64,000 nucleotides of DNA from Verrucomicrobiales bacterium (GCA_024233305.1 JACKPV010000028.1:93036-157035), one strand, 5' to 3'. Counted from the first letter of the stretch, positions 45,430-63,916 are shown. Notes: generated by a model from the sequence alone, not told the origin. Translations and numbers: made by a program.

Positions 45430-47649
45430 CTAGTGGCTCAGGCGGGAGGCCATCGCGTAGACGATGAGGACCAGCAGGATGACCCCGATTCCGAAAAACA
45501 TGTAGCCGAAGGAACGCGCGATGTTCTTCCAACGCTCCCATTCGTCGCGGACGCGGTGCGCGTCCAACCGGCCGGTGGCCACCAACCGGTCGTACCAACG
45601 GCGGCGTTCGTGGAGCATCTCGCTCTTCGAGACGCGACCCGAGAAGATCACGGTGTCCATCGGGAACTTCTCCAGCCGGAAATGCGTGTTGAAGAAGTGG
45701 ATGGTGAAGATGAAGCCCGCGGCGAGCAGCGCCTCGTCCGAGTGCACGATGAGCGCGATGTTGATCACCCAGCCCGGCAGGAACCGGCTGAAGAACTCGG
45801 GGAACCACATCACCAGACCCGAGAGCCCGATGGCGAACACGCCCCAGAACACGGCGAAGTAGTCGAACTTCTCCCAGTAGGTCCACCGGTCGAACTGCGG
45901 TTTCGGTCCCTTGCCGAAGAACCACTTGTTATGCGCCACGAAGTCCCGCAGGTCCTGCATCGTCGGCACCATCGAATCCGGCCCGAACATCGCGGTCTTG
46001 ATCCGTTGGAAGCTGACCCGGCCCGTGGCGGGATCCCGCATTTCGCGCCGGTTGACCCAGGTGTTTCGCACCAGCGCCGCCAGGTGCAGCCCGAAGTAGA
46101 GGAAGGTGATGAGGGCGCCGAAATGGTGCAACGTGCGCGCCACGACCGGTCCCCCCATGACACTGAAGAGGGTCCTGGCCCATTCGGTGTAATAGAACTT
46201 GAGCGGCATGCCGGTGATCACCAGCAACAGGAAGCTCGTCACCACCAGGAAGTGCAGGAACCGGTCAAACGGCTGGAACCGCGTGAACCACTCGTCATCC
46301 TGCTGGGTGTTGATCTTCGCCTCCCGGAAGGTCTTCGAGTCATGCAGATAAAGGTAGATCGCCCGCGCCAGCCAGAGCAGGGTATGCGCTCCGAAGAAGG
46401 TGAACACCCCGATCAACAACCCGGTCATCAGCACGAAGGTCAGGTGCAGTTCGGGGTAATGCTCGCGGTCCAGCGGATTCGCGTGCGGCTGGTATTGCGT
46501 AAAGCCGACGGTCGCGTCCGGATGGCACCGGGCGCAGGTGGCCAGGATGTTCTCCGAGGAAAGCCGGGATGCCGGATCGGACGGCGGCAGCACGTCATGG
46601 TGGCCGTGACAATCGTAGCAGGCCGCCACTTCCGAAGCCACGTTCGGCTGCCCCAGGGCCATCGCCTTGCCGTGATAGGTGTCGCGATAGTGGGTCAAGC
46701 GATCCTCGTGACACTGGCCGCAACGCCGGTCGCTCGCCGCCTTGAAATGCCCGTTGACCGGCGGCTCGATCTCGTGCGCGCTGTGGCAATCCGTGCAGAC
46801 CGGCCCGCGTTTGTCCCCCTCGAGCGTCAGCTTGCCATGCACGCTGCGGTCGTAGACCTCCTCGACCTTCACGTGGCATTTCCCGCACGTCTTGGCCACG
46901 TTGAGGTGGTTGATCGGCGAATCCCGGTCGACGCTGCGCTTGATGTCGTGCACCCCGTGGCAGTCATTGCACGAAGGCGCGACGATCAGCCCCAGCTTGA
47001 GCAGGGCCTGGCCGTGAATGCTGTCGAGGTAGTGCGCGGCCGCCGTGCTGTTCTGGATCTGGTATTCCTCCGTCAGATTCGTGTTGCTGTGACACTTCGC
47101 GCAGGTCAACGGCAGGTTCAGTTTGAACACCGGGGATTGCGAGTCGCTGACCGGCAGAATGTCGTGGTGGCCGTGACAATCCGCGCAACGGGCCGCCGCG
47201 CTCGCCCCCATCTGCTGACTCACACCGTGAATGCTTCCCGCGTATTCCTCCGCCGCGCTCTCATGGCACTGGCCGCAGTCCACCGACCGCGCCCGGACCT
47301 CGTCGTCCGGGTGATCCCGGGTCAGGTCCGCGTGACAATCCACACAGTCCAGCAGACCGCCGTGGACCGAGGCGTCGGCCGTCCCCGCATCGACGAAGAT
47401 CGACACCTCCTGCCCGTCCGGCCCGGTCATCGTCAGGTCGGCGTCCCCGTGGCAATCCAGACATTCGCTGCTGGCGATGACGTCCGCCGCCTCCTCGACC
47501 GCGGCATCGTCCCCCGCCGCGTCCTGGGAGTGGAGCGGGAGAAATCCGGCCGAGCCCAGCAGGCTCAGCCAGAGCAGGGTGATCGCAATACGGCGCAGCC
47601 CGCTAGAGGCCGCCGTTGTGGCAGTCACTGCACAACCAACCAGTGTCAT
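45430..47649 (-). CDS. CbcL-like fusion protein: 11-haem c-type cytochrome domain + C-terminal cytochrome-b-type membrane domain
   Basis: Signal-like LRRIAITLLWLSLLGSAGFLPLHS. The eleven CXXCH motifs are CLDCH, CVDCH, CGQCH, CADCH, CAKCH, CNDCH, CGKCH, CTDCH, CGQCH, CYDCH and CARCH. About 6 TM helices follow with His-bearing segments (FLHFLVV, TLHHFGAL...GLHLAAL, ALIVHSDEA...FTIHFFNTHF). The start is uncertain (47706, 47649 or 47628) and overlaps the upstream gene. Confidence 0.85.
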   Translation of the reverse strand: MTLVGCAVTATTAASSGLRRIAITLLWLSLLGSAGFLPLHSQDAAGDDAAVEEAADVIASSECLDCHGDADLTMTGPDGQEVSIFVDAGTADASVHGGLLDCVDCHADLTRDHPDDEVRARSVDCGQCHESAAEEYAGSIHGVSQQMGASAAARCADCHGHHDILPVSDSQSPVFKLNLPLTCAKCHSNTNLTEEYQIQNSTAAAHYLDSIHGQALLKLGLIVAPSCNDCHGVHDIKRSVDRDSPINHLNVAKTCGKCHVKVEEVYDRSVHGKLTLEGDKRGPVCTDCHSAHEIEPPVNGHFKAASDRRCGQCHEDRLTHYRDTYHGKAMALGQPNVASEVAACYDCHGHHDVLPPSDPASRLSSENILATCARCHPDATVGFTQYQPHANPLDREHYPELHLTFVLMTGLLIGVFTFFGAHTLLWLARAIYLYLHDSKTFREAKINTQQDDEWFTRFQPFDRFLHFLVVTSFLLLVITGMPLKFYYTEWARTLFSVMGGPVVARTLHHFGALITFLYFGLHLAALVRNTWVNRREMRDPATGRVSFQRIKTAMFGPDSMVPTMQDLRDFVAHNKWFFGKGPKPQFDRWTYWEKFDYFAVFWGVFAIGLSGLVMWFPEFFSRFLPGWVINIALIVHSDEALLAAGFIFTIHFFNTHFRLEKFPMDTVIFSGRVSKSEMLHERRRWYDRLVATGRLDAHRVRDEWERWKNIARSFGYMFFGIGVILLVLIVYAMASRLSH

Positions 47650-49084
47650 ATTCTTCGCCCGGATGCCGGAAGGGCTGTCCCTTCGCATCCAGTTGATCCA
47701 GTTCATCCCCGGAGCCCTGGGCCAGGATGATGTGGCAGGCGTCGCAACGACTCAGTTCGAGCACCTTCTCACCATCCTCGGTCTTGTGATTGTCGTCGTG
47801 GCAACGGAAGCAACCGGGCCATTCCTTGTGGCCGATGTTGTTCGGATAGCTCAGCCAGCTGGCCTTCATCGCGGGGAAGAAGTTCCGGCCATAGATCGCC
47901 CGGACCTCCTCGACCGCCTTCGCCACGACGTTCGGATCCTGGTCGCGGTACTTGGATTGAATGAAATCGCCGATCTCCGACATCGCCTCGTCCTTCGTCG
48001 AGTACTCCTGGACCAGGGCGTAGACGGCGTTCGTCTTGATGTACGGCAACGCGCGGTCCAGCCGGCCCAGGCTGATCGCCAGGTTCACCGCCTTGTTCGG
48101 CGAGTGGAAGTTGTGCGCCGGACGGTTGTGGCAGTCCATGCAGTCCATCCGCCGGACCTTCGACTCGTCCACCTCGTCCTCGTAACCGTCCGCCCGGTAG
48201 ACCGTGACCTGGCCTTCCCGGTCGGTGACCCGCACCCAGGGAATGGTCTGTCGGGATTCGTCCTCCGCGAAGTACTCGACCTTGTTGGCCACATTCATGT
48301 GCCAGTGGATACCGCTGGTCGGGCCGCGCGTCGGGTCGGCGCCCCCCACCTTGAGTTCGAGCTTCACCGAATACTCGGAACCCTCCTCGTCACCCTGGAA
48401 CGAGCGCACCGTGCGCACGACATCACCGACGAAGGACTCCGGCCAGTGGCACTGCTCGCAGGTGTCCTGGGCGGGACGCAAGTTCTTGATGGGGGTCGGC
48501 ACCGGGCGGGGATACTTGTTGAACAGGGTCGCATAGACCTGGTAGCTGCCCGACAGCTTGGCCCGGACGAACCACTCGGCGCCGGAACCGATATGGCATT
48601 CGACGCACGACACCCGGGCATGCGCGCCGTCCTGATAGGCCACGCGCTCCGGCTCCATGACCGTGTGGCACACCTCGCCGCAGAAGGTCGTGGATTCGGT
48701 CAAATGAAAGGTCTGGTAGCTGCCCAGCGCGGTCAGGAACAGGAACCCGATGCTGCAACTCGAGAAGATCAACAGTGTCCGGCGATGCTTCGGGCTGGCC
48801 AGATCGATGACCAGCGCCCGGGGCTCGCGGCTGCGGTGCAGGCGGCGACGTTCCACCAGGATGCCGGCCACGAACAGGGCGATCCCCAGAATCATGAAGC
48901 CGGGCGCCACCAGAAAAGCCAGGATCCCCACGTACGGATTCGACGATCCGGCGAACAACTCGAGCAACCAGAGCAGGACAAAGGCGAAGAAGGCGGCAAT
49001 CACCACCATCAAGCCCGAAAGGCTCACCCAGTTCTGCCACAGCCTCGCCTTCCCGCCGCCGTGTCTTTCAGTTTCCTGACTCAT
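47603..49084 (-). CDS. ImcH-like / NapC-NirT-related membrane multihaem cytochrome (3 TM + 7 haem motifs)
   Basis: ATG at 49084 (MSQETERH...). Three N-terminal TM helices. The six CXXCH motifs are CVECH, CEQCH, CMDCH, CFRCH, CDACH and CSDCH. One CX3CH motif (CGEVCH, 48665..48682) is also present. Confidence 0.8.
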   Translation of the reverse strand: MSQETERHGGGKARLWQNWVSLSGLMVVIAAFFAFVLLWLLELFAGSSNPYVGILAFLVAPGFMILGIALFVAGILVERRRLHRSREPRALVIDLASPKHRRTLLIFSSCSIGFLFLTALGSYQTFHLTESTTFCGEVCHTVMEPERVAYQDGAHARVSCVECHIGSGAEWFVRAKLSGSYQVYATLFNKYPRPVPTPIKNLRPAQDTCEQCHWPESFVGDVVRTVRSFQGDEEGSEYSVKLELKVGGADPTRGPTSGIHWHMNVANKVEYFAEDESRQTIPWVRVTDREGQVTVYRADGYEDEVDESKVRRMDCMDCHNRPAHNFHSPNKAVNLAISLGRLDRALPYIKTNAVYALVQEYSTKDEAMSEIGDFIQSKYRDQDPNVVAKAVEEVRAIYGRNFFPAMKASWLSYPNNIGHKEWPGCFRCHDDNHKTEDGEKVLELSRCDACHIILAQGSGDELDQLDAKGQPFRHPGEEYDTGWLCSDCHNGGL

Positions 49085-49325
49085 ACGCAACTGCCCGATT
49101 CATCCGCCGTTCTTTTTTCCATAAGCCTGCCGAAGCCTCTCCACTGCGGGAAACCCGGCACGCCCAAGAGGCTACAAAAACGTCGGAAACCTGCTTCGCA
49201 CCAATTGGCGAGGACCAACCGTTTCTTGCCATTCCACCTGACAACCCCCGCCACAAATGCCGCCTGACACCCTCCGCCACCCCGTGTTAGCCTCCCCCAC
49301 CCTGAAACGTCGCCTCATTCACGTC

Positions 49326-51800
49326 ATGAACATCACGAACCCAGCCCCCACCCCGCGCCGCCCCGGCCCCCACGCCCCGGGCCCGCTGCTGGCGCGCCTG
49401 GCCCTCCTCGGTCTCCTGTCCCCCGCCGCCGGATACGCCGTGGAACTCGCCAACGCCGTGGTCGTACGCCCGCCCCACCCCCACCGCGCCGTGGACCGGG
49501 CCGTGACCATGCTCGTCGATGAGGTCGGAAAACGCGCCCGCCTCCGCTGGACCGTGACCACCGAATGGCCCCGCGACGGCCGCCCGGCCATCGCCGTGGG
49601 CGAGGTATCCGACCGCCGCGCTCTGACCGGACCATGGGCCGCGCTGGAAGCCGATGGGGGCCGGCCACCCTCAGCGGAAGGATTCCACATCCGCGTCACA
49701 AACGGGTCCGAAACCCCGGGCGTGCTCCTCGCCGGCCACGACCCGCGCGGGGTGCTCTTCGGCGTGGGACACCTGCTGCGGCATCTCGAAATCCGCCCCG
49801 GAAGCGTCACCCTTCCCGACGATTTCACCGTCACGACCGCGCCCCGCCAGCGACTCCGCGGCCATCAACTCGGGTTCCGACCGAAGACCCATTCCTACGA
49901 CGCCTGGGACGTGGCCCAATGGGAGCAGTATTACCGCGATCTCATCGTGTTCGGCGCCAACGCCATCGAGTTGATGCCGCCCCGCACCGACGACGCCGCC
50001 GACAGCCCGCACTTTCCGCTGCCGCCAATGGAGATGATGGGCCGCATGTCACAGCTGGCGGATGATTACGACCTGGACGTTTGGATCTGGTACCCGGCGA
50101 TGGACCGGGATTACGCCGACCCCGCGACGGTGGAACGGGCGCTGCACGAATGGCGCGAAGTCTTCGAGCAACTCCCGCGAGTGGACGCAGTGTTTGTGCC
50201 GGGCGGCGATCCCGGGCACACGCCGCCCCGAACGTTGATGAGCCTCCTCGCCCGGCAAAGTGCGTCGTTGCGCGAGGCGCATCCCGGGGCGGAATTGTGG
50301 GTGTCGCCGCAGGGCTTCGACCGGCAGTGGCTGGACGAGTTCCTCGACCTTCTGCGCCACGATGGCCCGGACTGGCTCGCCGGCGTGGTTTTCGGCCCGC
50401 AAGTGCGGATGAGCCTCCCCGAGTTGCGCGCGGCGATTCCCTCCCGCTACCCGATCCGGCATTACCCTGACATTACGCACACCCGCCAATGCCAGTATCC
50501 GGTGCCCGATTGGGACGTCGCCTTCGCGATCACCGAGGGACGCGAATGCATCAACCCGCGGCCCGTGGACCAGGCGGCCATCTTCCGGTTGCTGCAACCG
50601 CACACCGTGGGTTTCCTGACCTACTCGGAGGGCTGCAACGACGACGTGAACAAGGCCGTCTGGAGCGCGCTCGGGTGGGATCCGGAGCAGCCGGTGATCG
50701 ACATCCTGCGCGAATACAGCCGGCACTTCATCGGCCCCGACTTCGAGGAGGGGTTCGCGCAGGGGTTGCTCGCGTTGGAAAGGAACTGGCGCGGCCCCGT
50801 GGCGGCGAATCCCGGCATCGAAACCACGCTCCGACAGTTCCAGCAGATGGAACGTCAGGCCGGCCCGGCGGTGAGGGCGAACTGGCGTTTCCAGCAGGCC
50901 CTCTTCCGCGCCCACTACGACGCCTTCATCCAACGTCGCCTCGCCCGCGAAACGGCCCTCGAACAGGAAGCCACCGACGCCCTGCAACAGGCGGACAGGA
51001 ACGGAGCGCTCTTCGCCCTGCGCCAGGCTGAAGCCACGCTGGATCGGGCCCTCACGGAACCCGTCGCCCCGGACTTGCGCGCGCGCATCCGCGAGCTGGC
51101 CGAATCGCTCTTCCAAAGCATCCGCATGCAACTCAGCGTGCCCCGGCACGCCGCCATTGCGGTGGATCGCGGCGCCAGCCTGGACACCCTCGATTACCCC
51201 CTCAACAACCGCCGCTGGTTGCTCGAGCAGTTCCCCCGTATCCGCGCCCTGCCAACCGAGGCCGCGCGACTCGAAGCCATCCGGACCCTCGTGGACTGGA
51301 CCAATCCCGGTCCCGGCGGTTTCTACGACGATCCGGGCAATCCCGCCCGCCAGCCGCATCTGGTCCGGCAGCTGCCGTTCCCGGAAGACCCGGCCAGTTA
51401 CCGCTCGGCCAAGACCGGGTTCGAGGAAGGCGACGTGGTGGACGATCCCGCGGACCAGCCCGAAGGCGCCTTGCGTCTGTCCTGGATGGACCACGCCGAA
51501 ACGCTGTGGGATCAGCCCCTCCGGTTCCACTACACCGACCTTGATTCGGCAGCGCGCTACCGCGTCCGTGTCGTCTATGGTGGCGACAGCCCCCGCCGCC
51601 GCGTCCGCCTCGCGGCGGGGGACAACTTCGAGATCCACCCGTTGCAGGCCCGGGAGAACCCCTATCACCCGCAGGAATACGCGATTCCAGCCGCCGCCAT
51701 CCGGGACGGCGAACTCACCCTCACCTGGACGCTCGAACCGGGCCTTGGCCGCAACGGACGCGGCTGCCAGGTGGCCGAAGTCTGGCTGATCAAGGAATAG
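49326..51800 (+). CDS. Secreted glycoside-hydrolase-like protein (GH20b/GH67N-like N-domain + TIM-barrel-like core)
   Basis: ATG at 49326 with signal LLARLALLGLLSPAAGYA. EGFHIRV...GVLLAGHDPRGVLFGVGHLLRHL resembles the N-domain of GH20/67/115-type enzymes, followed by RGHQLGFRPKTHSYDAW. The family assignment is tentative. Confidence 0.5.
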   Translation: MNITNPAPTPRRPGPHAPGPLLARLALLGLLSPAAGYAVELANAVVVRPPHPHRAVDRAVTMLVDEVGKRARLRWTVTTEWPRDGRPAIAVGEVSDRRALTGPWAALEADGGRPPSAEGFHIRVTNGSETPGVLLAGHDPRGVLFGVGHLLRHLEIRPGSVTLPDDFTVTTAPRQRLRGHQLGFRPKTHSYDAWDVAQWEQYYRDLIVFGANAIELMPPRTDDAADSPHFPLPPMEMMGRMSQLADDYDLDVWIWYPAMDRDYADPATVERALHEWREVFEQLPRVDAVFVPGGDPGHTPPRTLMSLLARQSASLREAHPGAELWVSPQGFDRQWLDEFLDLLRHDGPDWLAGVVFGPQVRMSLPELRAAIPSRYPIRHYPDITHTRQCQYPVPDWDVAFAITEGRECINPRPVDQAAIFRLLQPHTVGFLTYSEGCNDDVNKAVWSALGWDPEQPVIDILREYSRHFIGPDFEEGFAQGLLALERNWRGPVAANPGIETTLRQFQQMERQAGPAVRANWRFQQALFRAHYDAFIQRRLARETALEQEATDALQQADRNGALFALRQAEATLDRALTEPVAPDLRARIRELAESLFQSIRMQLSVPRHAAIAVDRGASLDTLDYPLNNRRWLLEQFPRIRALPTEAARLEAIRTLVDWTNPGPGGFYDDPGNPARQPHLVRQLPFPEDPASYRSAKTGFEEGDVVDDPADQPEGALRLSWMDHAETLWDQPLRFHYTDLDSAARYRVRVVYGGDSPRRRVRLAAGDNFEIHPLQARENPYHPQEYAIPAAAIRDGELTLTWTLEPGLGRNGRGCQVAEVWLIKE

Positions 51801-53781: not shown

Positions 53782-54351
53782 TCAGACGGTCTCCGTCCTG
53801 GCGTAAACCACCATCTCGCCGTCGCGGCGCAGGTCCTCCGGATGGTAGCGCGGGATGGGCATTTCGAGGTGCTTGAACTGCACCGGCGCGGTCTTCTTGT
53901 CGACGATGCCCAAGGCCACCGCCACGCCGTAGATGATTGCTTCCGGGCGGGGCGGGCAGCCGGGAATGTAGAAGTTCACCGGGACGAGCTTCTCGACCGG
54001 ACCCAGGACGGAATACATGTCGTACCAGATGCCGCCCCCGCACGCGCACGAGCCGATGGCGAAAACCAGCTTCGGCGCGGGCATGGCTTCGTAGGCGCGT
54101 TGGAGGGCCTTCGCCGTCGAACGCATGGCCGGTCCCTGACAGAGCATGACGTCGGCGTGCCGGGGTGAGCCCACCAGACGAATGCCGAACCGTTCGGCGT
54201 CGTAATACGGGGTCAGCGCATTGAGCACCTCGATGTCGCATCCGTTGCACCCGCCGCTGTTGGCGTGGTAGACCCACAGCGAGCGCCCGAACATTTTCTG
54301 GCAGAGGTTCTTCAACATGGTGGGATGATCCCGCGAGAAGCCCGGCTTCAA
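53782..54351 (-). CDS. Group 4 [NiFe]-hydrogenase small subunit (NuoB/HycG-like)
   Basis: SLWVYHANSGGCNGCDIE, GSCACGGG and IPGCPPRPE are the NuoB/HycG cluster ligands. The start is TTG at 54351 (overlapping the upstream stop) or ATG at 54318. Confidence 0.85.
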   Translation of the reverse strand: MKPGFSRDHPTMLKNLCQKMFGRSLWVYHANSGGCNGCDIEVLNALTPYYDAERFGIRLVGSPRHADVMLCQGPAMRSTAKALQRAYEAMPAPKLVFAIGSCACGGGIWYDMYSVLGPVEKLVPVNFYIPGCPPRPEAIIYGVAVALGIVDKKTAPVQFKHLEMPIPRYHPEDLRRDGEMVVYARTETV

Positions 54352-54872
54352 TCCAGCTCGATTTCGATGTCGTCCACGACCGGTTGCCCATCGAGATAGG
54401 CTTGCGAGCGGAAGACCCAGCGCTCGTTTTCCAGGTCATCAAACCGGTACCCCTTCATCTTCAACTCCTCGAGCTTCGAGGGTTCCTTGAAGCATCGCCC
54501 GCATCGTTGGCAGGTGCTCATGAACAGCTCAAGGCGTTGTTGGATGTCGCCAATGGCCGGCGTGGCGTTCTCGAACTCGTGGCTCATGGTGATCGCCTTT
54601 TCGGGACAGACATCCGCGCAACGCCCGCAATAGGTGCACCGGCGGCCGAGGTATTTGATGATGCGGATTTCCTGACAGACGTCGTACACGAGAATCTCGC
54701 GGGCGGGGCAGTTGCTGGCACAGCCGCCGCAACCGATGCATTTGGCGGCGTCGAAGACCGGCCGACCGCGGAATCGCGCCGGCAAGGGCGAGGATTGCGC
54801 CGGATAGGGCAAGGTGACCCGGCCCGCCCGCAGACAGAGCACCGCTTCCTTCAGTTTGCTGGTAATGGACAT
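54348..54872 (-). CDS. 2x[4Fe-4S] ferredoxin-like subunit (NuoI/HycF-like)
   Basis: The two cluster motifs are CIGCGGCASNCPAREI and CTYCGRCADVCPEKAI. Confidence 0.85.
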   Translation of the reverse strand: MSITSKLKEAVLCLRAGRVTLPYPAQSSPLPARFRGRPVFDAAKCIGCGGCASNCPAREILVYDVCQEIRIIKYLGRRCTYCGRCADVCPEKAITMSHEFENATPAIGDIQQRLELFMSTCQRCGRCFKEPSKLEELKMKGYRFDDLENERWVFRSQAYLDGQPVVDDIEIELD

Positions 54873-54894
54873 CGTTGGCGTTGGCGCGGGGAGT

Positions 54895-55815
54895 TCAGTA
54901 ACCGAAACCAGCCAGCACGAGGGCCACGAAGGAGACCCCCACGAGGCCGCCGTAATAGCGCAGGGCTTGATCGATGCGATAGCGGGCGTGCGTCGCGGCC
55001 ACCAGCGTGACGAGAAGCACCAGCACCAGCACTTTCGCCCAGAAGAGCAGCCAACCGATCGGGAAGACCAGGTGGCTCCCCCAGGGAATGAACAAGGCCA
55101 CGAACAGGCTGCTGTAGATCACCAGGCGCACCATCTGAGCGTATTTGAAGACCGCCAGTTTGGGACCCGAGTATTCAATGAGCGGGCCTTCCATGATCTC
55201 CGTCTCCGCCTCCGCGATGTCAAAAGGCACGCGCTGCACGAAGGCCTGGAACGAAAGCAGCATCACCGCCAGCATGAGCAACCCCGACCATGGCACGCCG
55301 CCACCCGCGTAGACCGAGCCGTCGAGCACCGTCTCCAGCCGGAAGGTGCCGGTGTTCACGGCGCCGATGATCAGGGTGATCGCAAAGAGCGGCTCGAGCG
55401 CGATCATGGTGATCATCTCGCGGCTGATGCCGATGAGGGAAAAGGTCGAACCGGCCGCCAACCCGGCGAGCAGCGTGCAAATCCCCGCCAGCGTCAACAG
55501 GTAGACCAGCAGGATGATGTCCCCCGCCCCCGCCAGCGGGACCGGCGCGCCGAGGGGAATCAGGCAGGCGACGGTCAGCACCGTGGCCAGCGCCAGGTGC
55601 ACCGCGAACCGCTGCATCCACGGGCTCTCCCCGGATTCGATATCCTCCTTGCCGAGCAGTTTCAGCAGGTCGTAGTAGGGCTGCAGCAACGGCGGCCCCT
55701 GCCGCGACTGGATCCGCGCGGTGACCTTGCGCAGCAGGCCCTCGAACAACGGGGCCAGCGCGAGAACCACCACCACATTCGCGAACGACCGGAGGATGAG
55801 GATGAGCACTTCCAT
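54895..55815 (-). CDS. Membrane subunit NuoH/HycD-like
   Basis: About 8 TM helices. The motifs LLRKVTARIQSRQGPPLLQPYYDLLKL and PFDIAEAETEI are NuoH/HycD signatures. Confidence 0.85.
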   Translation of the reverse strand: MEVLILILRSFANVVVVLALAPLFEGLLRKVTARIQSRQGPPLLQPYYDLLKLLGKEDIESGESPWMQRFAVHLALATVLTVACLIPLGAPVPLAGAGDIILLVYLLTLAGICTLLAGLAAGSTFSLIGISREMITMIALEPLFAITLIIGAVNTGTFRLETVLDGSVYAGGGVPWSGLLMLAVMLLSFQAFVQRVPFDIAEAETEIMEGPLIEYSGPKLAVFKYAQMVRLVIYSSLFVALFIPWGSHLVFPIGWLLFWAKVLVLVLLVTLVAATHARYRIDQALRYYGGLVGVSFVALVLAGFGY

Positions 55816-55888
55816 CACGAGATACCGGGCGCGCTTCGGCTCCCGGCGTTCGGGCTTCGTTCGGGTTTCGGATTTCGGCCTTCAGCGT

Positions 55889-57559
55889 TCATCGGCGTCG
55901 CACCAGCCGCAGCAATTCTTCCTGGCTCCAGATCCGTTGGGCGCCGGACCGGATGTCGACCGTCTCCATGCGGTCCGTGCAGGAGAAGCAGGGATCGATG
56001 CTGCCAAGCGAAATGGTCATGTCGGCCAGTTGCTGGTCCTTGATCATCGCCGGCACACCCTGGAGATTCTGATACGTTGGCGCCCGCACCCGCCAGCGTC
56101 GGGGACGGTTGTTTTCGCCGGTGATGATGAAATGATGGCTTTCGCCGCGCGGGGCCTCGACGGAGGACATTCCCATGCGACCCACCGGCAGTTCGTCCTG
56201 GATGTCCAGGGCGAGCGGGCCGGGTTCCATGCGATCGAGACACTGGCGCATGATCCGAATGGACTCGAACACCTCCTTCATGCGGACGACCACCCGGGAC
56301 CAGACATCGGCGCCGTCGGCCGTGATCACATCGAAGTCGAGACGGTCGTAGGCCGCATAAGGATGGTCCCGCCGGGCGTCACCGGGAACCCCGGCGGCGC
56401 GGGCGACCGGCCCCACCAGGCCGGCCTCCTTGACGAGGCGGGCATCGGCAACCCCGACGCCACGGGTGCGCCGCTGGATGTTCCGATCCTTGGAAACGGC
56501 GGCGACAACCGCGGTCCATTCCGTTTCGAGCTTGTCGAGAACCTGGCGCAGTTCGGTCTTGAGTTCGGGCGTGATGTCCCAGCGCACCCCGCCGATGACG
56601 CAAAGGGCGTAGGTCTTCCGGTTGCCACTGATCTTCTCGGCGATCCACATGACCGGCTCGCGGATGCGGAAGGCCTGCATGAAAAGGGTGTCGAAGCCGA
56701 CGATGTGACAGGCGAGCCCGACCCAGAGCAGGTGGCTGTGGAGGCGCTCGAGTTCGAGCATGATGGTGCGGATGTAGGCGGCCCGCGGCGGGATCTCGAG
56801 GGCGGCCGCCGACTCGACGGCCTGGGCGTAGGCGACGTTGTGGACGCAGCCGCAGATGCCGCAGATGCGTTCGGCGGCCATCGGGATGTCGTTGTAGGTG
56901 AGCACCGATTCGGCGAGCTTCTCGATGCCGCGATGCACCATGAAGCCCCGGTACTCGCAGCCACGCACCATTTCGCCCTCGAGGTACAGCCGGAAGTGGG
57001 CCGGCTCGTCGAGCGTGGGATGAAACGGGCCGAAAGGCACCACCGTGCAGCCCTCGGGCGGCTCGTCGAACTTGAATTCACGATCCGGATCGAAGCCCTC
57101 GGGAACGTGGTTCCAGGGCACGTCCTTGCGCAAGGGATGCATGCCCTCGGGCCAGCCGTCCGGCAACACGAGACGTTTGGGATACGCATGTCCGACGGGT
57201 TCGATGCCGACCAGATCGCGGAACTCCCGTTCGGCCCAGTTCGCCGCCGGCACGTCCGCCGTGATCGAGTCGAGCTTCGGATCATCGGCCGGCAACTGCG
57301 TCAGGAAGCTCGCGAGCAGGTGGTCGCGGTCGAAGGCAAAGTTGTGCGCCACCAGAAAGTGACCTGAATGCGGCCGGTCATCGGCCCCGATGCTGATGAT
57401 GTAGCGCGCATCGAGCTGGCGGAAGACGTGGCGGCACACCTCCCGGACCGAGGCCCGGTCGATGAAGACGAACAACCGGTCCTCCGCGGGGAGGTCGGCG
57501 CGCTGGATGGCCGTCCCGAAACGGTCCTTCAGCAGGTTGAGTTTTTCTCGAGCGACCAT
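55889..57559 (-). CDS. Group 4 [NiFe]-hydrogenase large subunit fused to NuoC-like N-domain (HycE-like)
   Basis: The N-terminal 30-kDa-like domain includes ANWAEREFRDLVGIEP. NiFe ligand motifs are RICGICGCVH (proximal) and DPCFSCTDR (distal). A 26-aa C-terminal extension follows. Confidence 0.9.
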   Translation of the reverse strand: MVAREKLNLLKDRFGTAIQRADLPAEDRLFVFIDRASVREVCRHVFRQLDARYIISIGADDRPHSGHFLVAHNFAFDRDHLLASFLTQLPADDPKLDSITADVPAANWAEREFRDLVGIEPVGHAYPKRLVLPDGWPEGMHPLRKDVPWNHVPEGFDPDREFKFDEPPEGCTVVPFGPFHPTLDEPAHFRLYLEGEMVRGCEYRGFMVHRGIEKLAESVLTYNDIPMAAERICGICGCVHNVAYAQAVESAAALEIPPRAAYIRTIMLELERLHSHLLWVGLACHIVGFDTLFMQAFRIREPVMWIAEKISGNRKTYALCVIGGVRWDITPELKTELRQVLDKLETEWTAVVAAVSKDRNIQRRTRGVGVADARLVKEAGLVGPVARAAGVPGDARRDHPYAAYDRLDFDVITADGADVWSRVVVRMKEVFESIRIMRQCLDRMEPGPLALDIQDELPVGRMGMSSVEAPRGESHHFIITGENNRPRRWRVRAPTYQNLQGVPAMIKDQQLADMTISLGSIDPCFSCTDRMETVDIRSGAQRIWSQEELLRLVRRR

Positions 57560-59511
57560 GCGGAGGCGGGTTTCTCGTTGGGATTCTGCGGACGGGGTTC
57601 GACGGCCGGCAGCCGTCCGGCGGCCGGATGCAGGCGGCCGACGGCGCGATGCAGTTCGGTGTAGTAATGCGCGGCGCGCAGCCGATTGGCATCGGTTTCG
57701 ACCGCATAACCGCAAAGCCACGGCGCCGCGGCGCGCTGCGACGATCCTCCCGCGCGGGCCAGCAGGCGGACCAGGGCGAAAAGCCCCAGCATGAGCGCCA
57801 GGAGGAGCAAGGGCGCATAGACCGCGGTATTCGTCGCGGCGACAAGTCCGGCAGCACTGGCGGTCACCGGTCCGATGGTGTCCGGGGCGGTGGCCAGTCC
57901 GTGCGGACTCATCGCCAGAGCGCGCGACACGAAGGCGAAACCAAGAAACGGCAGCAACCCGGCCGCAACGCAGAGCGTCGCCAGGATCACCTGCGCGGTC
58001 CGCATCTTGCGCGAAACCTCAAGGCGCCCGAGAGCCTGCCGGCGTTCCTCGACCAACCGGCTGGTTCGCGAAAGGAAGATCGCCCCGTAAAACTTCATCA
58101 TCAGCGCGAGCGTGAGTGCGCTGGTCAACACCGCGACCGCGCCGCAAACCGGCAACCAGCGCGAGGCCGCCGTACCCTGCAAGGCCGCCGTAAACATCGG
58201 CCACTTGCTGGCGTAGCCGCTCAGCAGGGGCACCCCCGCGATGGCCAGACTGCCGACGAGGGCCGTAAACCCGGTGACGGGCATGTGGCGTTGAAGGCCG
58301 CCAAGTTTGTTCATGTCCTGGGTGCCGGTGGCGTGCAAAACCGCGCCCGCGTCCAGGAAGAGCAGGCTCTTGAAGACGCCATGATTCAAGGTGTGGAAGA
58401 GGGCGCCCGTCAAGGCGATCCCCGCCAGCGCTCCCGTTGCGGGCGTCCCTTCGCCCAGGAGCACCAGACACACCCCCAGGCCAAACAGGATGTAGCCGGC
58501 CTGGCCGATGCTGGAGAAAGCCAGCAGACGCTTCGACTGTTCCTGTTGCAGGGCCCGGAATGTGCCCGTGAACAGGGTCAGCGTGCCGAGGAACAGAAAC
58601 GCCAGGCCCCAACCGCCGATGGGGTAGTCGGCCCGCACCTCGGACGGCACCAGCCAAAGGAAGTACCGCATCAATCCGTAAACGCCGGTCTTGAGCATCA
58701 CCCCGGACAACAAGGCGCTCACCGGGGAAGGCGCCGCCGGATGGGCGTCCGGCAACCAGAACTGGCCGAAGGGCCACATCCCCAGCTTGATGCCGAAACC
58801 GGTCAGGAACAGCGTCAGCGCAACCGCCACCCAACCCGGGTGCCCGGCCAGCAAAGCAGGCATGTGATGCGCCACGGCATCGAAATCGAAGCGCATCAAT
58901 TCCGTGCCAGCCACGGTCTCCAAGCCGTCCTGCGCCAGCATGGCGGCACCCAGCATGGTGACGGCACACGCGAATTGCATCATCCACAGGAAACGCGCCG
59001 CGGCCTGCCGGTGGCCTGGGCACGATCGTTCATAGCGGATCATCGCCCAGCCCGTGAGCGTCATCATCTGCCAGAAGATGAAGAAGAACCACATCATGTC
59101 GGTCGTGCTCACCAGGCCGAGCATGGCGGCAATGAAGACCAGCAGATGCGGGTAGAAACGCCCCGCGCTCCGCGGACGGTGGGACGTCATATAGTCGATC
59201 GCGTGGAATGCCGCCGGCACGCTGACCACGGCAATCAACGCCAGGAACACCGCGCTCAAGCCGTCCACGTAAAGCCGCAGAGCGAAACCGAGCGGCGGCA
59301 GTGAGAGAAAGGTCACTCCCGGTCCGGGACCGTGGCGCAGCACGCCGGCCACCGCGCCGCCCACGAGCGCCGCCGTCGTCAGGATGACCCCGAAACTCAC
59401 CCAACCGGCCACCCGCCGCCGATGATCGATGAACAGTGTGAAGACCGCGCCGCCGAGACACAGCACGATGGCGCCAAGCACCGCGTGTTCAGGAGTGGTG
59501 AAGCCGGTCAT
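57529..59511 (-). CDS. Antiporter-like membrane subunit (NuoL/HycC/HyfB-like), copy 2
   Basis: 660 aa and polytopic. DMMWFFFIFWQMMTLTGW, LPDAHPAAPSPVSALLSGVMLKTGVYG and HTLNHGVFKSLLFL are present. Confidence 0.85.
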   Translation of the reverse strand: MTGFTTPEHAVLGAIVLCLGGAVFTLFIDHRRRVAGWVSFGVILTTAALVGGAVAGVLRHGPGPGVTFLSLPPLGFALRLYVDGLSAVFLALIAVVSVPAAFHAIDYMTSHRPRSAGRFYPHLLVFIAAMLGLVSTTDMMWFFFIFWQMMTLTGWAMIRYERSCPGHRQAAARFLWMMQFACAVTMLGAAMLAQDGLETVAGTELMRFDFDAVAHHMPALLAGHPGWVAVALTLFLTGFGIKLGMWPFGQFWLPDAHPAAPSPVSALLSGVMLKTGVYGLMRYFLWLVPSEVRADYPIGGWGLAFLFLGTLTLFTGTFRALQQEQSKRLLAFSSIGQAGYILFGLGVCLVLLGEGTPATGALAGIALTGALFHTLNHGVFKSLLFLDAGAVLHATGTQDMNKLGGLQRHMPVTGFTALVGSLAIAGVPLLSGYASKWPMFTAALQGTAASRWLPVCGAVAVLTSALTLALMMKFYGAIFLSRTSRLVEERRQALGRLEVSRKMRTAQVILATLCVAAGLLPFLGFAFVSRALAMSPHGLATAPDTIGPVTASAAGLVAATNTAVYAPLLLLALMLGLFALVRLLARAGGSSQRAAAPWLCGYAVETDANRLRAAHYYTELHRAVGRLHPAAGRLPAVEPRPQNPNEKPASAWSLEKNSTC

Positions 59512-61433
59512 GGGTGGTCGGGCTCCTTCAGGTTGGGGCTCCCTGCCCCGCCGGACCGCGGCGCGCCGCCAATCCAGCGGAACCAGCGTTTGAACTCAGC
59601 ATAGTATCCGTGCGCGGTGAAACGATTGGCTTCGCCGGCCTGCGCATACCCGGTCAACCAGGGGCTGTCCGTGCGCCGACTCGATCCCCCCGCTCTCGCC
59701 AGCATCGCGCCGCCCAACCCGAGGAGGGCCAGCAAGGCCAGGACCGCCAGCGGGACCAAGTGCGCCCCACCGCCGAGCACCGCTTGCATTCCCGGCAGGC
59801 CTTCCGCCGTTCGGACCGCCGCGGCCAGGGTTTCCCCCAACCCCTCGCGACTGGCGTTCAGCGCGCGCGTCGCGAGTCCGAACGCGACCGCCGGCGCCAG
59901 ACCAAACACGACACACGTCGCGGCGAGCAGGAGCTGCGGCGCCAGGAGGGTCCAGTCCTTTTCCAGCCGCTTCCGGCCGGCCGCCGCTTGCGTCACGGTT
60001 TCGCTGGCCCGCCCGAGAAAGCCGGCGCCGAAGAACTTGATGAAGGACGCCAGGGTGACCGCACTGGTCAGGATGGCCAGCACGCCGCATACGGGCAGCC
60101 ACCAGCCGGCGGGAACGCCCTGGATGGCGCCCGTGTAGATCGTCCACTTGCTCAGGAACCCGTTGAACCCGGGCACCCCGGAAATCGAGAACGAGGCCAC
60201 CAGCACCGTGATCCCCGTGACCGGCATCCATTTGAGCAAACCACCCAACCGGTTGAGGTCCTGCGTGCCGGCGGCCAGCAGCATCGAGCCCGAGTTCAAG
60301 AACAGCAGGCTCTTGAAGGTCCCGTGATGAACGGTATGCAACAGCGCCCCCATGAACGCCACCGTGGCCACGGGCGCCAGCGCCGCATCGTTCAACCCGA
60401 GGACCGCGAGGCAGGCGCCGATGCCCAGCAGGATGTAGCCCACCTGACCAATGCTGTGGAAGGCCAGCAGACGTTTCGTCTGTTCCTGGCGCAGTGCCTG
60501 CAGCGTGCCGGTGAGCAGAGTGACCGTGCCGAGGCCGGCCAGCAACGCCCCCCAGGTCGTCATCGGGTACGCCCCGGTGGCCTCCGCCGGCACCAGCCAC
60601 AGAAAGTAGCGCATGATGCCGTATACCCCGGTCTTCAGCATGACCCCCGAGAGCAGCGCGCTCATCGGCGACGGCGCCGCGGGATGCGCGTCGGGCAGCC
60701 AGACCTGTCCGAAGGGCCACATGCCCAGCTTGATGCCAAACCCGACCAGGAACAGCGCGAAGGCCAGCGCCACGCGACCGGGATGACCCTCGAGCAGCGC
60801 CGGCAGATTGGCGCTCACCGTCTCGAAGTCGAAGCGCAAGCCCGCGCCGACCGTCGGCGTCCCCGCCGCCAGCAAACCCGCCCCGAGCATGGTGACCGCA
60901 CAGGCGATCTGCATCATGACGAGGAACTTCAAGGCCGCGCGGCGGTTGGCGGCGTTCCGGTGCTCGAAGCGGATCATCACGAACCCCGGCAGGGTCATCA
61001 GCTGCCAGAAGATGAAGAAGAACCACATCATGTCCGTGGTGCTCACCAGCCCGTACATCGCCGCGATGAATACCAACAACCACGAGTAGTAACGCCGGAC
61101 TCCATAGTCCGGATAGAGATCCATATAGCGGATCGAGAACAGCGTGGCCGGGAGCGCGATGCTGGCGATCAGCCCGATGAACACCGCCGTCAAGCCGTCC
61201 ACATGCAACGTCAGCGCGAAGCCCAGGGCCGGCAGGCGCAGGAATGTCTCGGGAGCCGTGCCACCGTCGATCAGCGATCGTGCGGCGGCGAAGAGGGCGA
61301 ACATGCTCGCGATGGTGGTCACCAGGAACGTCAACCAACCCGCCAGTCGTCGATTCGCCGCGACCACCGCCGTCACTGCGGCGCCCGCCAGACAGAGGAC
61401 CAAAGCAATCAGCAAGGCTTGCGCGGGGGTCAT
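59508..61433 (-). CDS. Antiporter-like membrane subunit (NuoL/HycC/HyfB-like), copy 1
   Basis: The start is trimmed to the ATG at 61433 (MTPAQALLIALVLCLAGAAV). It carries the same conserved blocks as copy 2 (DMMWFFFIFWQLMTLPGF, LPDAHPAAPSPMSALLSGVMLKTGVYG). ATGA overlap with copy 2. Confidence 0.85.
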   Translation of the reverse strand: MTPAQALLIALVLCLAGAAVTAVVAANRRLAGWLTFLVTTIASMFALFAAARSLIDGGTAPETFLRLPALGFALTLHVDGLTAVFIGLIASIALPATLFSIRYMDLYPDYGVRRYYSWLLVFIAAMYGLVSTTDMMWFFFIFWQLMTLPGFVMIRFEHRNAANRRAALKFLVMMQIACAVTMLGAGLLAAGTPTVGAGLRFDFETVSANLPALLEGHPGRVALAFALFLVGFGIKLGMWPFGQVWLPDAHPAAPSPMSALLSGVMLKTGVYGIMRYFLWLVPAEATGAYPMTTWGALLAGLGTVTLLTGTLQALRQEQTKRLLAFHSIGQVGYILLGIGACLAVLGLNDAALAPVATVAFMGALLHTVHHGTFKSLLFLNSGSMLLAAGTQDLNRLGGLLKWMPVTGITVLVASFSISGVPGFNGFLSKWTIYTGAIQGVPAGWWLPVCGVLAILTSAVTLASFIKFFGAGFLGRASETVTQAAAGRKRLEKDWTLLAPQLLLAATCVVFGLAPAVAFGLATRALNASREGLGETLAAAVRTAEGLPGMQAVLGGGAHLVPLAVLALLALLGLGGAMLARAGGSSRRTDSPWLTGYAQAGEANRFTAHGYYAEFKRWFRWIGGAPRSGGAGSPNLKEPDHP

Positions 61434-62002
61434 CGCATCACCTCCATCGCCGGTTGAACCACCCTTGGCCGGGACGAACCGCCGGACCTCACGAGCAGCC
61501 CGCCTAGGAGCTCCGCCAGCGCCTCGACCGTGCGCTGCACCGGTTCGCTGAGCGCACAGACAGCGTCGTTCCCCCATCGCATGGCAGCCGCGCCCCCCCC
61601 GCCCTGCGCAACGGTCCGGGGCTGGACGCCCAGCAAGCCAACCTTCCGGCGCCCGTCGCTTTCGATCAACCGGGCGAGCAGGCCGAGCGCCAGCTTGTGG
61701 GTCGAAACCTGCGGATAACGCGCGGTTATTTCGTCGGTCTCGAGCAGCACCACCGAACCGGGCGGGCCGCGGAATTCGGTGGCGTCGAGGAAGAGCACCC
61801 GCTCACAACCCGTGGCCGCGATGGCGTCGAGCAGGCGCTCCGGCTCCGTGCCGGCGAACAGGACCGGTTCAACCCCGGCGCCCGCCAGTTGCTCGGCCAG
61901 GCACATCCCGAGGGCATCGTCGCCCTGGCCGACGTTCCCCACCCCGACCACACAGACCCGGCCGGTCAGGAGCGCTTCGAGCTGTTCACGCAGTCCGGGC
62001 AT
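61430..62002 (-). CDS. Hydrogenase maturation endopeptidase (HycI/HybD-like)
   Basis: ATG at 62002 overlaps the upstream stop (ATGA). GVGNVGQGDDALG, FLDAT and VSTHK supply the Asp/Asp/His metal ligands typical of these proteases. Confidence 0.75.
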   Translation of the reverse strand: MPGLREQLEALLTGRVCVVGVGNVGQGDDALGMCLAEQLAGAGVEPVLFAGTEPERLLDAIAATGCERVLFLDATEFRGPPGSVVLLETDEITARYPQVSTHKLALGLLARLIESDGRRKVGLLGVQPRTVAQGGGGAAAMRWGNDAVCALSEPVQRTVEALAELLGGLLVRSGGSSRPRVVQPAMEVMR

Positions 62003-62847
62003 CAGATTTCCTCCCCCAGCTTGCGGATTTGCTCGAAGGTGAAGACCGGGCCGTCGACGCAGACATAGGAGACCCCGATGCAGCAATGCCCGCACTTGCC
62101 CACGCCGCACTTCATGTAGCGTTCGAGGGTCGACACGATGTTGCGGTCCTCGAAGCCGAGTTTCTTGAGGTCCATGATGACAAACCGGAACATGATGGGC
62201 GGCCCGCAGACGAACGCCGTCGTGTTCTCGACCGGCAGGTTGACGCCCTCCTTCTGGAACAGGCTCCCGACCACGCCCGTGTGCCCGGTCCAACCGTCAT
62301 CCCCCCGATCCACGGTCAGATGGCATTCGATGCCGCCCGCTTTTTCCCATTCCTTGAGGTCGGGTCGGTACATCAGTTCCTGGGGCGTCTTCGAGCCGTA
62401 GAAGATCTGGATGCGGCCGAATTTCTCGCGGTGGGCCAGCGCGTAGATGATGCACGAACGCAGCGGAATCAACCCGATGCCGCCCGCCACGAACACGAGG
62501 TTGCGCCCCGCGTAGGCGTCCATCGGAAACCCGTTGCCGTAAGGACCGCGGACGCCGAATCGCGCGCCGGGCTGGAGGGCGTGCAACGCGGCGCTGCAAC
62601 TGCCCACCGTGCGGATGGTAAAGAAGGTCTCCTCCTCGGTGGGACTGGGCGGCAGCGAGGCGGGGAATTCCCCGACGCCGAACAGCGACACCTGGGCGAA
62701 CTGCCCGGGCATGAACCGCCGGAACGCCGCCTGCTCAGCCGCATCCTCGAAGTGCCAGAAAAACGTCCGGACGTCCGTGATCTCGTCGACCACGCGGTCC
62801 AGCACCGCCAGTTTCGGCAGGTAAATGTTGTCAGCGGGCGACGGCAT
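62002..62847 (-). CDS. FAD/NAD(P)-binding [2Fe-2S] oxidoreductase subunit (sulfhydrogenase gamma HydG / AsrB / PyrK-like)
   Basis: Ferredoxin-reductase-type fold motifs are FFTIRTVG and VFVAGGIGLIPL. The C-terminal cluster motif is MKCGVGKCGHCCIGVSYVCVDGPVF. The start is ATG at 62847 or TTG at 62865. Confidence 0.8.
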   Translation of the reverse strand: MPSPADNIYLPKLAVLDRVVDEITDVRTFFWHFEDAAEQAAFRRFMPGQFAQVSLFGVGEFPASLPPSPTEEETFFTIRTVGSCSAALHALQPGARFGVRGPYGNGFPMDAYAGRNLVFVAGGIGLIPLRSCIIYALAHREKFGRIQIFYGSKTPQELMYRPDLKEWEKAGGIECHLTVDRGDDGWTGHTGVVGSLFQKEGVNLPVENTTAFVCGPPIMFRFVIMDLKKLGFEDRNIVSTLERYMKCGVGKCGHCCIGVSYVCVDGPVFTFEQIRKLGEEI

Positions 62848-63916
62848 CGGCGGACTCGGTTTCAACGGTGGCCCGGCGGATCATCTCGACGACGCTCGGC
62901 ATGCCGATGTCGCCATGGCAAACGGCCACGCACCGGCCGCAGCCGACGCAGGCCATCGAGAGTTCACGCTGGATGAAATAGTGGGCCAGCTTCCGGAAGA
63001 AGCGGCGGTTGCGACGGTCGTGGACGGCATGGCGCGGGTTGTGTCCGCCGGCCATCCGGGTAAAACCGTGCAGCGCGCACGAGTCCCATAACCGCACCCG
63101 TTCGTACTCGCCCGGACCGACGCGGCGGTCGCTGACGGTGAAGCACGTGCAGGCGGGGCAAACGTAGGTGCACCCGCCGCATTCCAGGCAGCGGGATCCG
63201 ATCTCCTGCCAGGTCTTGTCGAGGATCTTCCCCTGCGAAACGTAGCGAACGGTCGCCGCGAACCAGCTGGTCATGGTTTTGAACCGCCTGCGTGTTTCCG
63301 CAAGAATCGCGCGCCGCCGCTCGACATGCTCGGGACCGGCGGGTTGGAAAACCGGATCGCTGAACAACGATTCACCCTTGGGCGTGCCGGCCACCGCCAT
63401 GTAGACGTCCCCCAGGTCCATCAATTGCAGGTCGAAATGGTCCTTCGCCGCCGGGCCGGTGTCGGTGCAAACGCAGAAGCAGTTTTCGTCAATGTCGTGC
63501 TCCGGATCGGTGCAGACGACGTTCACGAGAAAGAGGTTCCGCCGGCGATGTTCGTAGTAGGTGTCGCGGTAGTCGCGGCCCAGATAGAAACGGTCCAAGT
63601 GATCGATTCCCGCCACGTCGCAGGACCGGATGCCGAAGATCGCCCGGGGCGTTTCATCGAGCGTGGGTTGAAGTTCGTAGGTGCCGTCCGTCTGCTTGAT
63701 CCGCATCAGCTTCTCGATGTGCGGGAAGACGTAGCGTTTGGGCGGGTAATAGGGATTGGGCAGGTGCAGTTCGATGCGATCCCGGTTGGCCTTGGTGACC
63801 GCCTCGAAAAACGTGTCCCGGCCACGACCGCGGAACGGCGCCAGCACCTCGTATTCCTGCCGGAGCAGATCCACGATCCGGAGCACGTCAGGCTTGGCGA
63901 TCAGGCGGGCGCGCAT
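62831..63916 (-). CDS. 4Fe-4S-cluster subunit (sulfhydrogenase beta HydB / AsrA-like)
   Basis: 361 aa. PKRYVFP, GIRSCDVAGI, CLECGGCTYVCPACTCF and CVGCGRCVAVCHGDIGM are present. Confidence 0.8.
   Translation of the reverse strand: MRARLIAKPDVLRIVDLLRQEYEVLAPFRGRGRDTFFEAVTKANRDRIELHLPNPYYPPKRYVFPHIEKLMRIKQTDGTYELQPTLDETPRAIFGIRSCDVAGIDHLDRFYLGRDYRDTYYEHRRRNLFLVNVVCTDPEHDIDENCFCVCTDTGPAAKDHFDLQLMDLGDVYMAVAGTPKGESLFSDPVFQPAGPEHVERRRAILAETRRRFKTMTSWFAATVRYVSQGKILDKTWQEIGSRCLECGGCTYVCPACTCFTVSDRRVGPGEYERVRLWDSCALHGFTRMAGGHNPRHAVHDRRNRRFFRKLAHYFIQRELSMACVGCGRCVAVCHGDIGMPSVVEMIRRATVETESADAVAR

Follow-up and report, generated by a model that had tools for sequence, protein, structure and literature searches.

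How would a membrane-bound hydrogenase of the formate hydrogenlyase (FHL) type use the flavoprotein module of a sulfhydrogenase, and what becomes of formate in such an enzyme? The question is raised by a gene cluster in a 64,000-nucleotide stretch of DNA from a Verrucomicrobiales bacterium (GCA_024233305.1, JACKPV010000028.1:93036-157035; the whole stretch is called the window below). Open reading frame (ORF) calls combined with Pfam and NCBIfam searches gave nine co-directional minus-strand genes at positions 53782-63916, and once the gene that extends beyond the window is counted the hydrogenase locus is one tight ten-gene operon, with the order fdh-like, hydB-like, hydG-like, hycI, two hyfB-like genes, hycE-like, hycD-like, hycF-like and hycG-like (Table 1). 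The answer that we favour, and to which we give about an even chance judging by the sequences, is that the operon encodes an ion-translocating hydrogenase that exchanges electrons with NAD(P)H, and that its subunit related to formate dehydrogenase (FDH) does not oxidise formate. A wider proposal, which we put forward more tentatively and hold at somewhat short of an even chance, is that this clade represents the first group 4 ion-translocating [NiFe]-hydrogenase to use NAD(P)H/NAD(P)+ directly, a sulfhydrogenase flavoprotein module having been grafted onto an FHL whose dead FDH was kept as a scaffold. We know of no membrane-bound group 4 hydrogenase for which direct coupling to NAD(P)H has been shown.

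The order, strand and family assignments of the nine genes are those given in a first-pass annotation that a model had made from the window's sequence, and all of them are borne out by Pfam and NCBIfam. That annotation began several genes too early (the protease, the first HyfB-like subunit, the large subunit and the NuoB-like subunit), the true starts lying downstream of those of the longest ORFs. It had also described start/stop overlaps at most junctions, and indeed there are five overlaps (17, 1, 4, 4 and 31 nt) and three short gaps (73, 22 and 29 nt) at the junctions inside the window, the gaps of the operon being too small for extra genes. The first gene of the operon, past position 64000, had been left as "unknown". 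Read on contig JACKPX010000013.1 of a Verrucomicrobiales metagenome-assembled genome (MAG; GCA_024233225.1), which has an exact match to the HydB-like protein, this gene encodes an FdhF homologue of 677 amino acids, and its stop codon lies 2 nt ahead of the hydB-like ATG. The earlier description of the sulfhydrogenase-type genes as standing "instead of" a formate dehydrogenase is therefore wrong for gene content, since the operon opens with an FdhF homologue, and the related remark, that a formate dehydrogenase is not to be seen, holds inside the window but misleads about the complete operon.

The sequence comparisons support a core that is a group 4, FHL-type, membrane-bound [NiFe]-hydrogenase, whose nearest characterised relative is the group 4a protein HycE (38% identity). 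Both Ni-Fe motifs, RICGICGCVH and DPCFSCTDR, are invariant in 81 large subunits, and the large subunit carries a cleavable C-terminal extension, with a HycI-type protease encoded in the same operon. Among solved relatives the large subunit scores 420 bits with Escherichia coli HycE (7z0s_E) and 236 bits with Pyrococcus MbhL, and against models it reaches 25 bits for ShyA and 307 bits for NuoD. In BLASTP searches against the E. coli Hyc and Hyf proteins it was 38-39% identical to HycE and HyfG, in keeping with the FHL/Hyf-like membrane and catalytic core that had been recognised at first reading. The cluster-binding cysteines of the small subunit and of the NuoI-like subunit are invariant in 69 orthologues, and the two antiporter-like copies, which are 54% identical to each other, both retain the Lys and His conserved in HycC and HyfB. 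The same BLASTP searches gave no match in the operon to HycB, HyfA, HycH, HyfJ or HyfE; the lack of HycB had already been noted. HycB/HyfA is the four-cluster ferredoxin that joins FdhF to HycF, and HycH/HyfJ is an assembly factor. A separate observation concerns the C-terminal extension of the NuoI-like subunit, where an extra CxxCxxC at residues 121-127 is invariant in the 69 orthologues, while E. coli HycF/HyfH have CxxC ... CxxC at that place; this motif may hold a further cluster or metal where the subunit meets the HydB-like protein.

The two genes that follow the fdh-like gene encode a module of a different origin. The HydG-like protein is closest to the gamma subunit of Pyrococcus furiosus sulfhydrogenase I (SHI; 9nez_C, 1.4e-54) and the HydB-like protein to the beta subunit of the same enzyme (9nez_B, 3.3e-40), the top NCBIfam models for the latter being sulfhydrogenase HydB/ShyB and AsrA. 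Since the scores with the NCBIfam equivalog models fall far under the cut-offs, the two proteins should be regarded as homologues, rather than orthologues, of the sulfhydrogenase subunits; the matches to AsrA (141 bits) and AsrB (188 bits) are also under their cut-offs. Cofactor-binding residues are kept throughout: all 16 cysteines are invariant across 61 HydB-like orthologues, as are the NAD(P) loop AGGIGLIPLRS, the motifs GPYGNGF and CGPPxM and the four [2Fe-2S] cysteines across 68 HydG-like orthologues. The first-pass annotation had allowed for NAD(P)-binding residues being absent, which these invariant motifs contradict, and its assignment of the pair as a sulfhydrogenase-type diaphorase module agrees with both the conserved motifs and the homology to the NADPH-oxidising SHI beta and gamma subunits.

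What could the FdhF homologue contribute to such an enzyme? It carries the Molybdop_Fe4S4, Molybdopterin and Molydop_binding domains, scores 512 bits with TIGR01591 (under the cut-off of 666), and has as its closest solved relatives HDCR FdhF, Bacillus subtilis ForC/YjgC, F420-FDH and E. coli FdhH. Catalysis by FDHs needs Sec or Cys at position 140 (the Mo ligand), His141 and Arg333. When the protein is aligned to HDCR FdhF, CARLCH becomes GTGVYT and PLRGQNN becomes PLAEHNN, and the equivalents of Sec140, His141 and Arg333 of E. coli FdhH are Tyr, Thr and Ala. This is a property of the whole family, all three catalytic residues being replaced in 59 of 59 orthologues: at site 140, 57 sequences have Tyr and two have Phe, site 141 holds Cys, Ser, Thr or Gly, and at site 333 Thr, Ser or Ala precedes an invariant Glu. 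The Fdh-like subunit has, as far as its residues can tell, probably stopped oxidising formate, and because the catalytic residues of FDH are lost, the idea of an NAD(P)H-linked function in the first-pass annotation survives the presence of the FdhF homologue.

Much else in the Fdh-like subunit has been retained. The four cysteines of the N-terminal [4Fe-4S] site are invariant among the 59 orthologues. A set of 32 canonical FdhF-type sequences has 93 positions with conservation of 90% or more; 61 of these are retained in the family, and 37 in the cofactor-less E. coli NuoG. The canonical features that are lost include Lys44, which is replaced by Arg, the GxTQH loop, which has a two-residue deletion, and TGR, which has become SGQ. 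A single-chain AlphaFold model predicts the full FDH fold (pTM 0.83), with TM scores of 0.85-0.87 to FDHs and of 0.87 to 7z0t_A, the FdhF of an FHL complex. Its confidence is low at the loops of the former cofactor and active site (residues 293-295, 326-334 and 568-574), which is suggestive but does not decide whether a cofactor is bound.

Loss of the catalytic residues extends beyond this family. A whole-library search returned it as a tight clade with two full-length 50%-identity representatives, the next matches being at most 37% identical, and many of the neighbouring FdhF-like representatives are likewise without Cys-His-Arg. We examined the gene contexts of five such non-canonical relatives, and in four of them (P0244, P0247, P0259 and P0253) the next gene encodes a Fer4_22 (HydB-like) protein, followed, where the contigs extend, by HydG-like, hycI and antiporter-like genes; the contig of the fifth (P0246) is too short to show downstream genes. 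The non-canonical proteins cluster at the base of a crude neighbour-joining tree, and each subclade differs at the old active site, with for example GVYT, EPGH or RAQR. Since the Fdh-like clades that are linked to HydBG-like genes carry such differing residues there, it appears that catalysis was lost, rather than that a new chemistry is shared among them.

How widespread the arrangement is can be judged from a scan of relatives with one genome per species, which gave 180 relatives, the details below being those of the best 80 of the 180. All 80 are MAGs, with large subunits 76-87% identical, and their hosts belong to at least eight lineages (Verrucomicrobiota, Acidobacteriota, Nitrospirota, Methylomirabilota, Planctomycetes, Armatimonadota (Chthonomonadaceae), Syntrophobacteraceae and Chlamydiota); the operon type is common in uncultured bacteria of soil, peat and groundwater. 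Wherever the contig is long enough the ten-gene order recurs, in about 60 loci from many phyla, and the comparison of synteny thus upholds the linkage of the hydBG-like genes to the hydrogenase genes. The HyfB-like gene is single in most relatives and present in two copies in the window and in about ten Verrucomicrobiota loci, so that the duplication is, by these sequences, confined to some lineages of Verrucomicrobiota. High identity across phyla combined with variable flanks suggests that the operon has spread horizontally as a self-contained unit. Decay into a pseudogene was considered and ruled out, given ten intact genes, conservation across phyla and the many invariant residues of the Fdh-like family.

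The genes flanking the related operons vary, the commonest being an HdrC/HdrB-like pair upstream (seven to eight loci) and HypA downstream (about six); formate channel, PFL, molybdenum-cofactor and fdhD families are not among the most frequent flank families of these loci. At locus L019, for instance, an HdrC-like 4Fe-4S gene (93-650) and an HdrB-like CCG-domain gene (654-1544) lie on the same strand, 55 bp upstream of the Fdh-like gene. It is possible that such neighbours point to a further redox partner; at the window's own locus the pair is absent. HypA-like and CobW/HypB-like nickel-insertion genes adjoin some related operons on the 3' side of the NuoB-like gene (about six loci, e.g. L091 882-2062); the scanned ORFs of the window include no hyp genes. 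On the 5' side of the fdh-like gene, a 486-bp non-coding stretch is followed by a divergent gene. This intergenic region, which is outside the window, contains an AT-rich patch, ttcttttgaaattagataattgcaggcattgctatggcaaaaaaagataatcaaatgacaagc (L001 7700-7790), in a genome of 66% GC; it is likely to be a promoter or regulatory region, and neither a sigma-70 nor a sigma-54 consensus was found. Scanning the operon for sigma-70 promoters and intrinsic terminators, internal sites included, gave nothing exceeding the shuffled expectation. Control of the sigma-54/FhlA type was rejected, a TGGYAY-N5-TTGCW-type motif being found upstream of the Fdh-like gene in none of 59 loci.

From gene content, homologies, motif conservation, synteny and the loss of FDH catalytic residues we infer the subunit contacts, the electron path, the use of NAD(P)H (and any preference between NADH and NADPH), the ion coupling and the direction of the reaction. 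The peripheral arm would consist of the HydG-like, HydB-like and FdhF-derived subunits, in place of HycB and a catalytic FdhF. The HydG-like subunit would serve as an SHI-gamma-like FAD/[2Fe-2S] NAD(P)H dehydrogenase and the HydB-like subunit as a wire of several [4Fe-4S] clusters, with electrons presumably passing from NAD(P)H to FAD and the [2Fe-2S] cluster of the former, through the [4Fe-4S] chain of the latter, and then via the HycF-like and HycG-like subunits to the Ni-Fe site, or in reverse. Movement of ions through the NuoH-like and HyfB-like subunits would be coupled to this redox reaction. The FdhF-derived subunit, which keeps its N-terminal [4Fe-4S] site and predicted fold but has lost Sec/Cys-His-Arg, could be a scaffold, an Fe-S end-station or a dock for a second redox partner. 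As NAD(P)H has a redox potential of about -320 mV and the H+/H2 couple one of -414 mV at 1 atm H2, formation of H2 from NAD(P)H would require a low H2 pressure or assistance from the membrane potential. The enzyme may vent NAD(P)H as H2 under such circumstances, or it may make NADPH from H2, and transfer from H2 to NAD(P)+ could conserve energy.

Several considerations weigh against an NAD(P)H-linked hydrogenase with an inactive Fdh-like subunit. The transfer of electrons from NAD(P)H to H2 is endergonic under standard conditions, and all members of this kind of hydrogenase are known from their sequences alone. The Fdh-like subunit is moreover under strong purifying selection, with family-specific invariants near the old active site (H129, G130, G132, Y134, N137 and E326), and this conservation, together with its keeping more canonical positions than NuoG, means that it could hold a cofactor and act on a real third substrate. 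One may therefore also consider, as the main rival, the three-terminus and possibly confurcating enzyme of Takano et al. (2026), in which the Fe-S network has three branches, ending at the Ni-Fe site, an SHI-gamma-like flavin and the Fdh-like subunit. The last of these would bind a third substrate or partner (an unknown small molecule or ferredoxin), giving confurcation, bifurcation or a dual-donor H2 metabolism. AlphaFold models with three branches (PMC13582414) speak for it, as do the predicted intact Fdh-like fold with its invariant [4Fe-4S] cysteines and many family-specific invariant residues, and the canonical positions that the subunit keeps beyond those of NuoG. The HdrC/HdrB-like pair stands directly upstream in seven to eight related loci, and the PFOR and KorAB genes of the window would supply reduced ferredoxin. 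However, the HydBG-linked Fdh-like clades have no replacement residues in common at the old active site; the motifs of the PGD loops are altered (the deletion in the GxTQH loop and the change of TGR to SGQ); and the only flavoprotein of the operon is of the FNR/PyrK type, with no known bifurcating flavin site. The Hdr-like genes, too, are missing at the window's own locus. Altogether we regard the three-terminus enzyme as a serious but rather unlikely alternative.

Less probable still is an ordinary FHL, in which the Fdh-like subunit would oxidise formate at a non-canonical site, with the HydB/HydG-like proteins taking over from HycB simply as an electron wire. An FdhF homologue as the operon's first gene and a HycE-like large subunit would fit, and published annotations label such clusters as FHL or as group 4b with formate dehydrogenase (PMC6018796; PMC9599518). 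Against these stand the replacement of all three catalytic residues in every one of the orthologues, the TIGR01591 score under its cut-off, the failure of BLASTP to find HycB/HyfA and HycH homologues, and the invariant NAD(P)-binding flavoprotein, which would be pointless as a mere wire. Formate channel and PFL genes do not recur among the commonest flank families, and the sigma-54 promoter motif occurs in none of the upstream regions. With the catalytic residues and HycB both missing, a true FHL function is unlikely. That the HydB/HydG-like genes are part of some cytoplasmic sulfhydrogenase, or of a separate sulfite reductase of the AsrABC type, and lie beside the hydrogenase genes by chance can hardly be the case: the matches to NCBIfam AsrA and AsrB would agree with it, but both are under the cut-offs, the operon has neither an AsrC/sirohaem gene nor a group 3 hydrogenase subunit, the genes overlap on both sides, and the order, including hycI right after hydG, is kept in the roughly 60 loci and in distant relatives. 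On the strength of synteny and gene overlaps we reject the AsrABC reading, and with it the independent transcription unit, complete with an AsrC-like gene, that the first-pass annotation had envisaged; AsrC was found neither in the operon nor in the flanks.

If the NAD(P)H-linked hydrogenase is real, it would form a new physiological class that links the pyridine-nucleotide pool, H2 and the membrane potential, and an independent parallel to the way in which complex I gained NuoEFG with an FDH-derived NuoG. With its NiFe core, flavoprotein and degenerate FDH subunit it would be a living analogue of an intermediate in the evolution of complex I. The "formate hydrogenlyases" annotated in Acidobacteriota and Verrucomicrobiota of peat and soil would then be NAD(P)H-linked, energy-coupled H2 enzymes; metabolic reconstructions at present treat these clusters as formate hydrogenlyases (PMC6018796, PMC9599518). 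For annotation, an FdhF match beside a group 4 hydrogenase should not be equated with formate oxidation unless Sec/Cys-His-Arg has been checked.

Genes in the rest of the window were taken from ORF picking based on GC3 and from Pfam. The KorA/KorB-like 2-oxoacid:ferredoxin oxidoreductase pair, to which the first-pass annotation had drawn attention, is confirmed and supports its remark on a low-potential ferredoxin metabolism. In the PFOR-like ORF, Pfam reports no family past about residue 835. Two further ORFs of high GC3, at 49257-51800 (847 amino acids) and 19136-20437 (433 amino acids), both on the plus strand, had no Pfam match at E <= 1e-5.

Table 1. Genes of the hydrogenase operon, in operon order, and other redox genes of the window (positions counted from its first nucleotide)
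Feature	Position	Strand	Domains, motifs and remarks
FdhF-like molybdopterin-oxidoreductase homologue, 677 aa	63919..64000	-	last 27 codons in window; whole gene L001 7965-9998
HydB/SHI-beta/AsrA-like Fe-S subunit, 361 aa	62831..63916	-	Fer4_22; 16 invariant Cys
HydG/SHI-gamma/AsrB-like FAD-, NAD(P)-binding [2Fe-2S] flavoprotein, 281 aa	62002..62847	-	NAD_binding_1 + DHODB_Fe-S_bind
HycI-type hydrogenase maturation endopeptidase, 190 aa	61430..62002	-	HycI; TIGR00072 77 bits, above cut-off
HyfB/HycC/NuoL-like antiporter-type membrane subunit, copy 1, 641 aa	59508..61433	-	Proton_antipo_M
HyfB/HycC/NuoL-like antiporter-type membrane subunit, copy 2, 660 aa	57529..59511	-	Proton_antipo_M
Fused NuoC-NuoD [NiFe] large subunit, HycE-like, 556 aa	55889..57559	-	RICGICGCVH, DPCFSCTDR; 26-aa C-terminal extension
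HycD/HyfC/NuoH-like membrane subunit, 306 aa	54895..55815	-	NADHdh
HycF/HyfH/NuoI-like 2x[4Fe-4S] subunit, 174 aa	54348..54872	-	two 4Fe-4S motifs
HycG/HyfI/NuoB-like small subunit, 178 aa	53782..54318	-	Oxidored_q6; four proximal-cluster Cys
KorA/KorB-like pair	1895-3751 and 3735-4808	+	Pfam
PFOR-like ORF, 1587 aa	26827-31590	+	POR_N, PFOR_II, POR, Fer4
Two tandem fusions of multihaem cytochrome c (Cytochrome_C7/c3, paired CXXCH) with a cytochrome b561-type (Ni_hydr_CYTB) membrane domain	43536-45365, 45430-47706	-	

The operon can be set against several known systems. Closest are the group 4b [NiFe]/[NiFeSe] clusters that Takano et al. (Front Microbiol, Sept 2026; PMC13582414) described in silico, in which Fdh-like proteins without Cys/Sec co-occur with homologues of SHI beta and gamma. 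Like those clusters, the present one combines an Fdh homologue that has no Mo-ligand Cys/Sec, SHI-beta/gamma homologues and a membrane-bound group 4 hydrogenase that includes HyfC-like and antiporter-like subunits; the host phyla overlap (Acidobacteriota, Armatimonadota, Methylomirabilota), and frequent inter-phylum transfer seems to be common to both. In contrast, the large subunit here is of the Cys type and not the Sec type, there is no HyfE homologue and only one HycF-like subunit, where their "typical" 4b cluster has a HyfE-like subunit and multiple ferredoxin subunits, and the antiporter-like gene is duplicated in the present Verrucomicrobiales lineage, our clade being matched to their set by description. 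A similar region was called an "enigmatic" group 4 region in Saganbacteria RX5A by Matheus Carnevali et al. (2019; bioRxiv 10.1101/328856), who left its function undetermined. By gene content it resembles the present operon in having an unclassifiable molybdopterin oxidoreductase and asrA-/asrB-like genes beside a group 4 hydrogenase, and differs in having a CooF-like gene. Comparable clusters of peat Acidobacteria have been labelled group 4a FHL (PMC6018796) or 4b with formate dehydrogenase (PMC9599518). The chimeric arrangement described in the first-pass annotation is thus a real architecture, though one already reported in silico (PMC13582414); what is new here is a Cys-type Verrucomicrobiales representative of it with a duplicated antiporter-like gene.

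With the E. coli enzymes FHL-1 and FHL-2 (group 4a; 7Z0S/7Z0T) the operon shares the fused NuoC-NuoD, the HycG-, HycF-, HycD- and HycC/HyfB-like subunits, the HycI protease and the FdhF fold. It differs from them in that the FdhF homologue has no Sec140/His141/Arg333, that HycB/HyfA, HycH/HyfJ and HyfE as well as the sigma-54 motif were not found, and that an NAD(P)H flavoprotein module of the SHI-beta/gamma type has been added. With P. furiosus SHI itself (group 3b; 9NEZ/9NF0) it has in common the beta and gamma homologues with their conserved Fe-S, FAD-type and NAD(P) motifs, from which the wiring by homology would run between NADPH, the Fe-S chain and the hydrogenase in either direction; unlike in SHI, the catalytic subunits are complex-I-like proteins of group 4 and not the cytoplasmic group 3 alpha and delta subunits, and an Fdh-like subunit is present in addition. 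The N-module of complex I (NuoE/F/G), like other enzymes whose FDH-like domains are catalytically dead, offers a parallel in design, as there too an NAD(P)H flavoprotein and an FDH-derived, non-catalytic Fe-S subunit sit on a core of NuoB/C/D/H/I/L type, whereas in the present operon the flavoprotein is of the FNR/PyrK type (FAD) rather than NuoF (FMN), the subunit corresponding to the Q site still has its Ni-Fe centre, and the Fdh-like subunit has departed less from the canonical FDH sequence than NuoG has.

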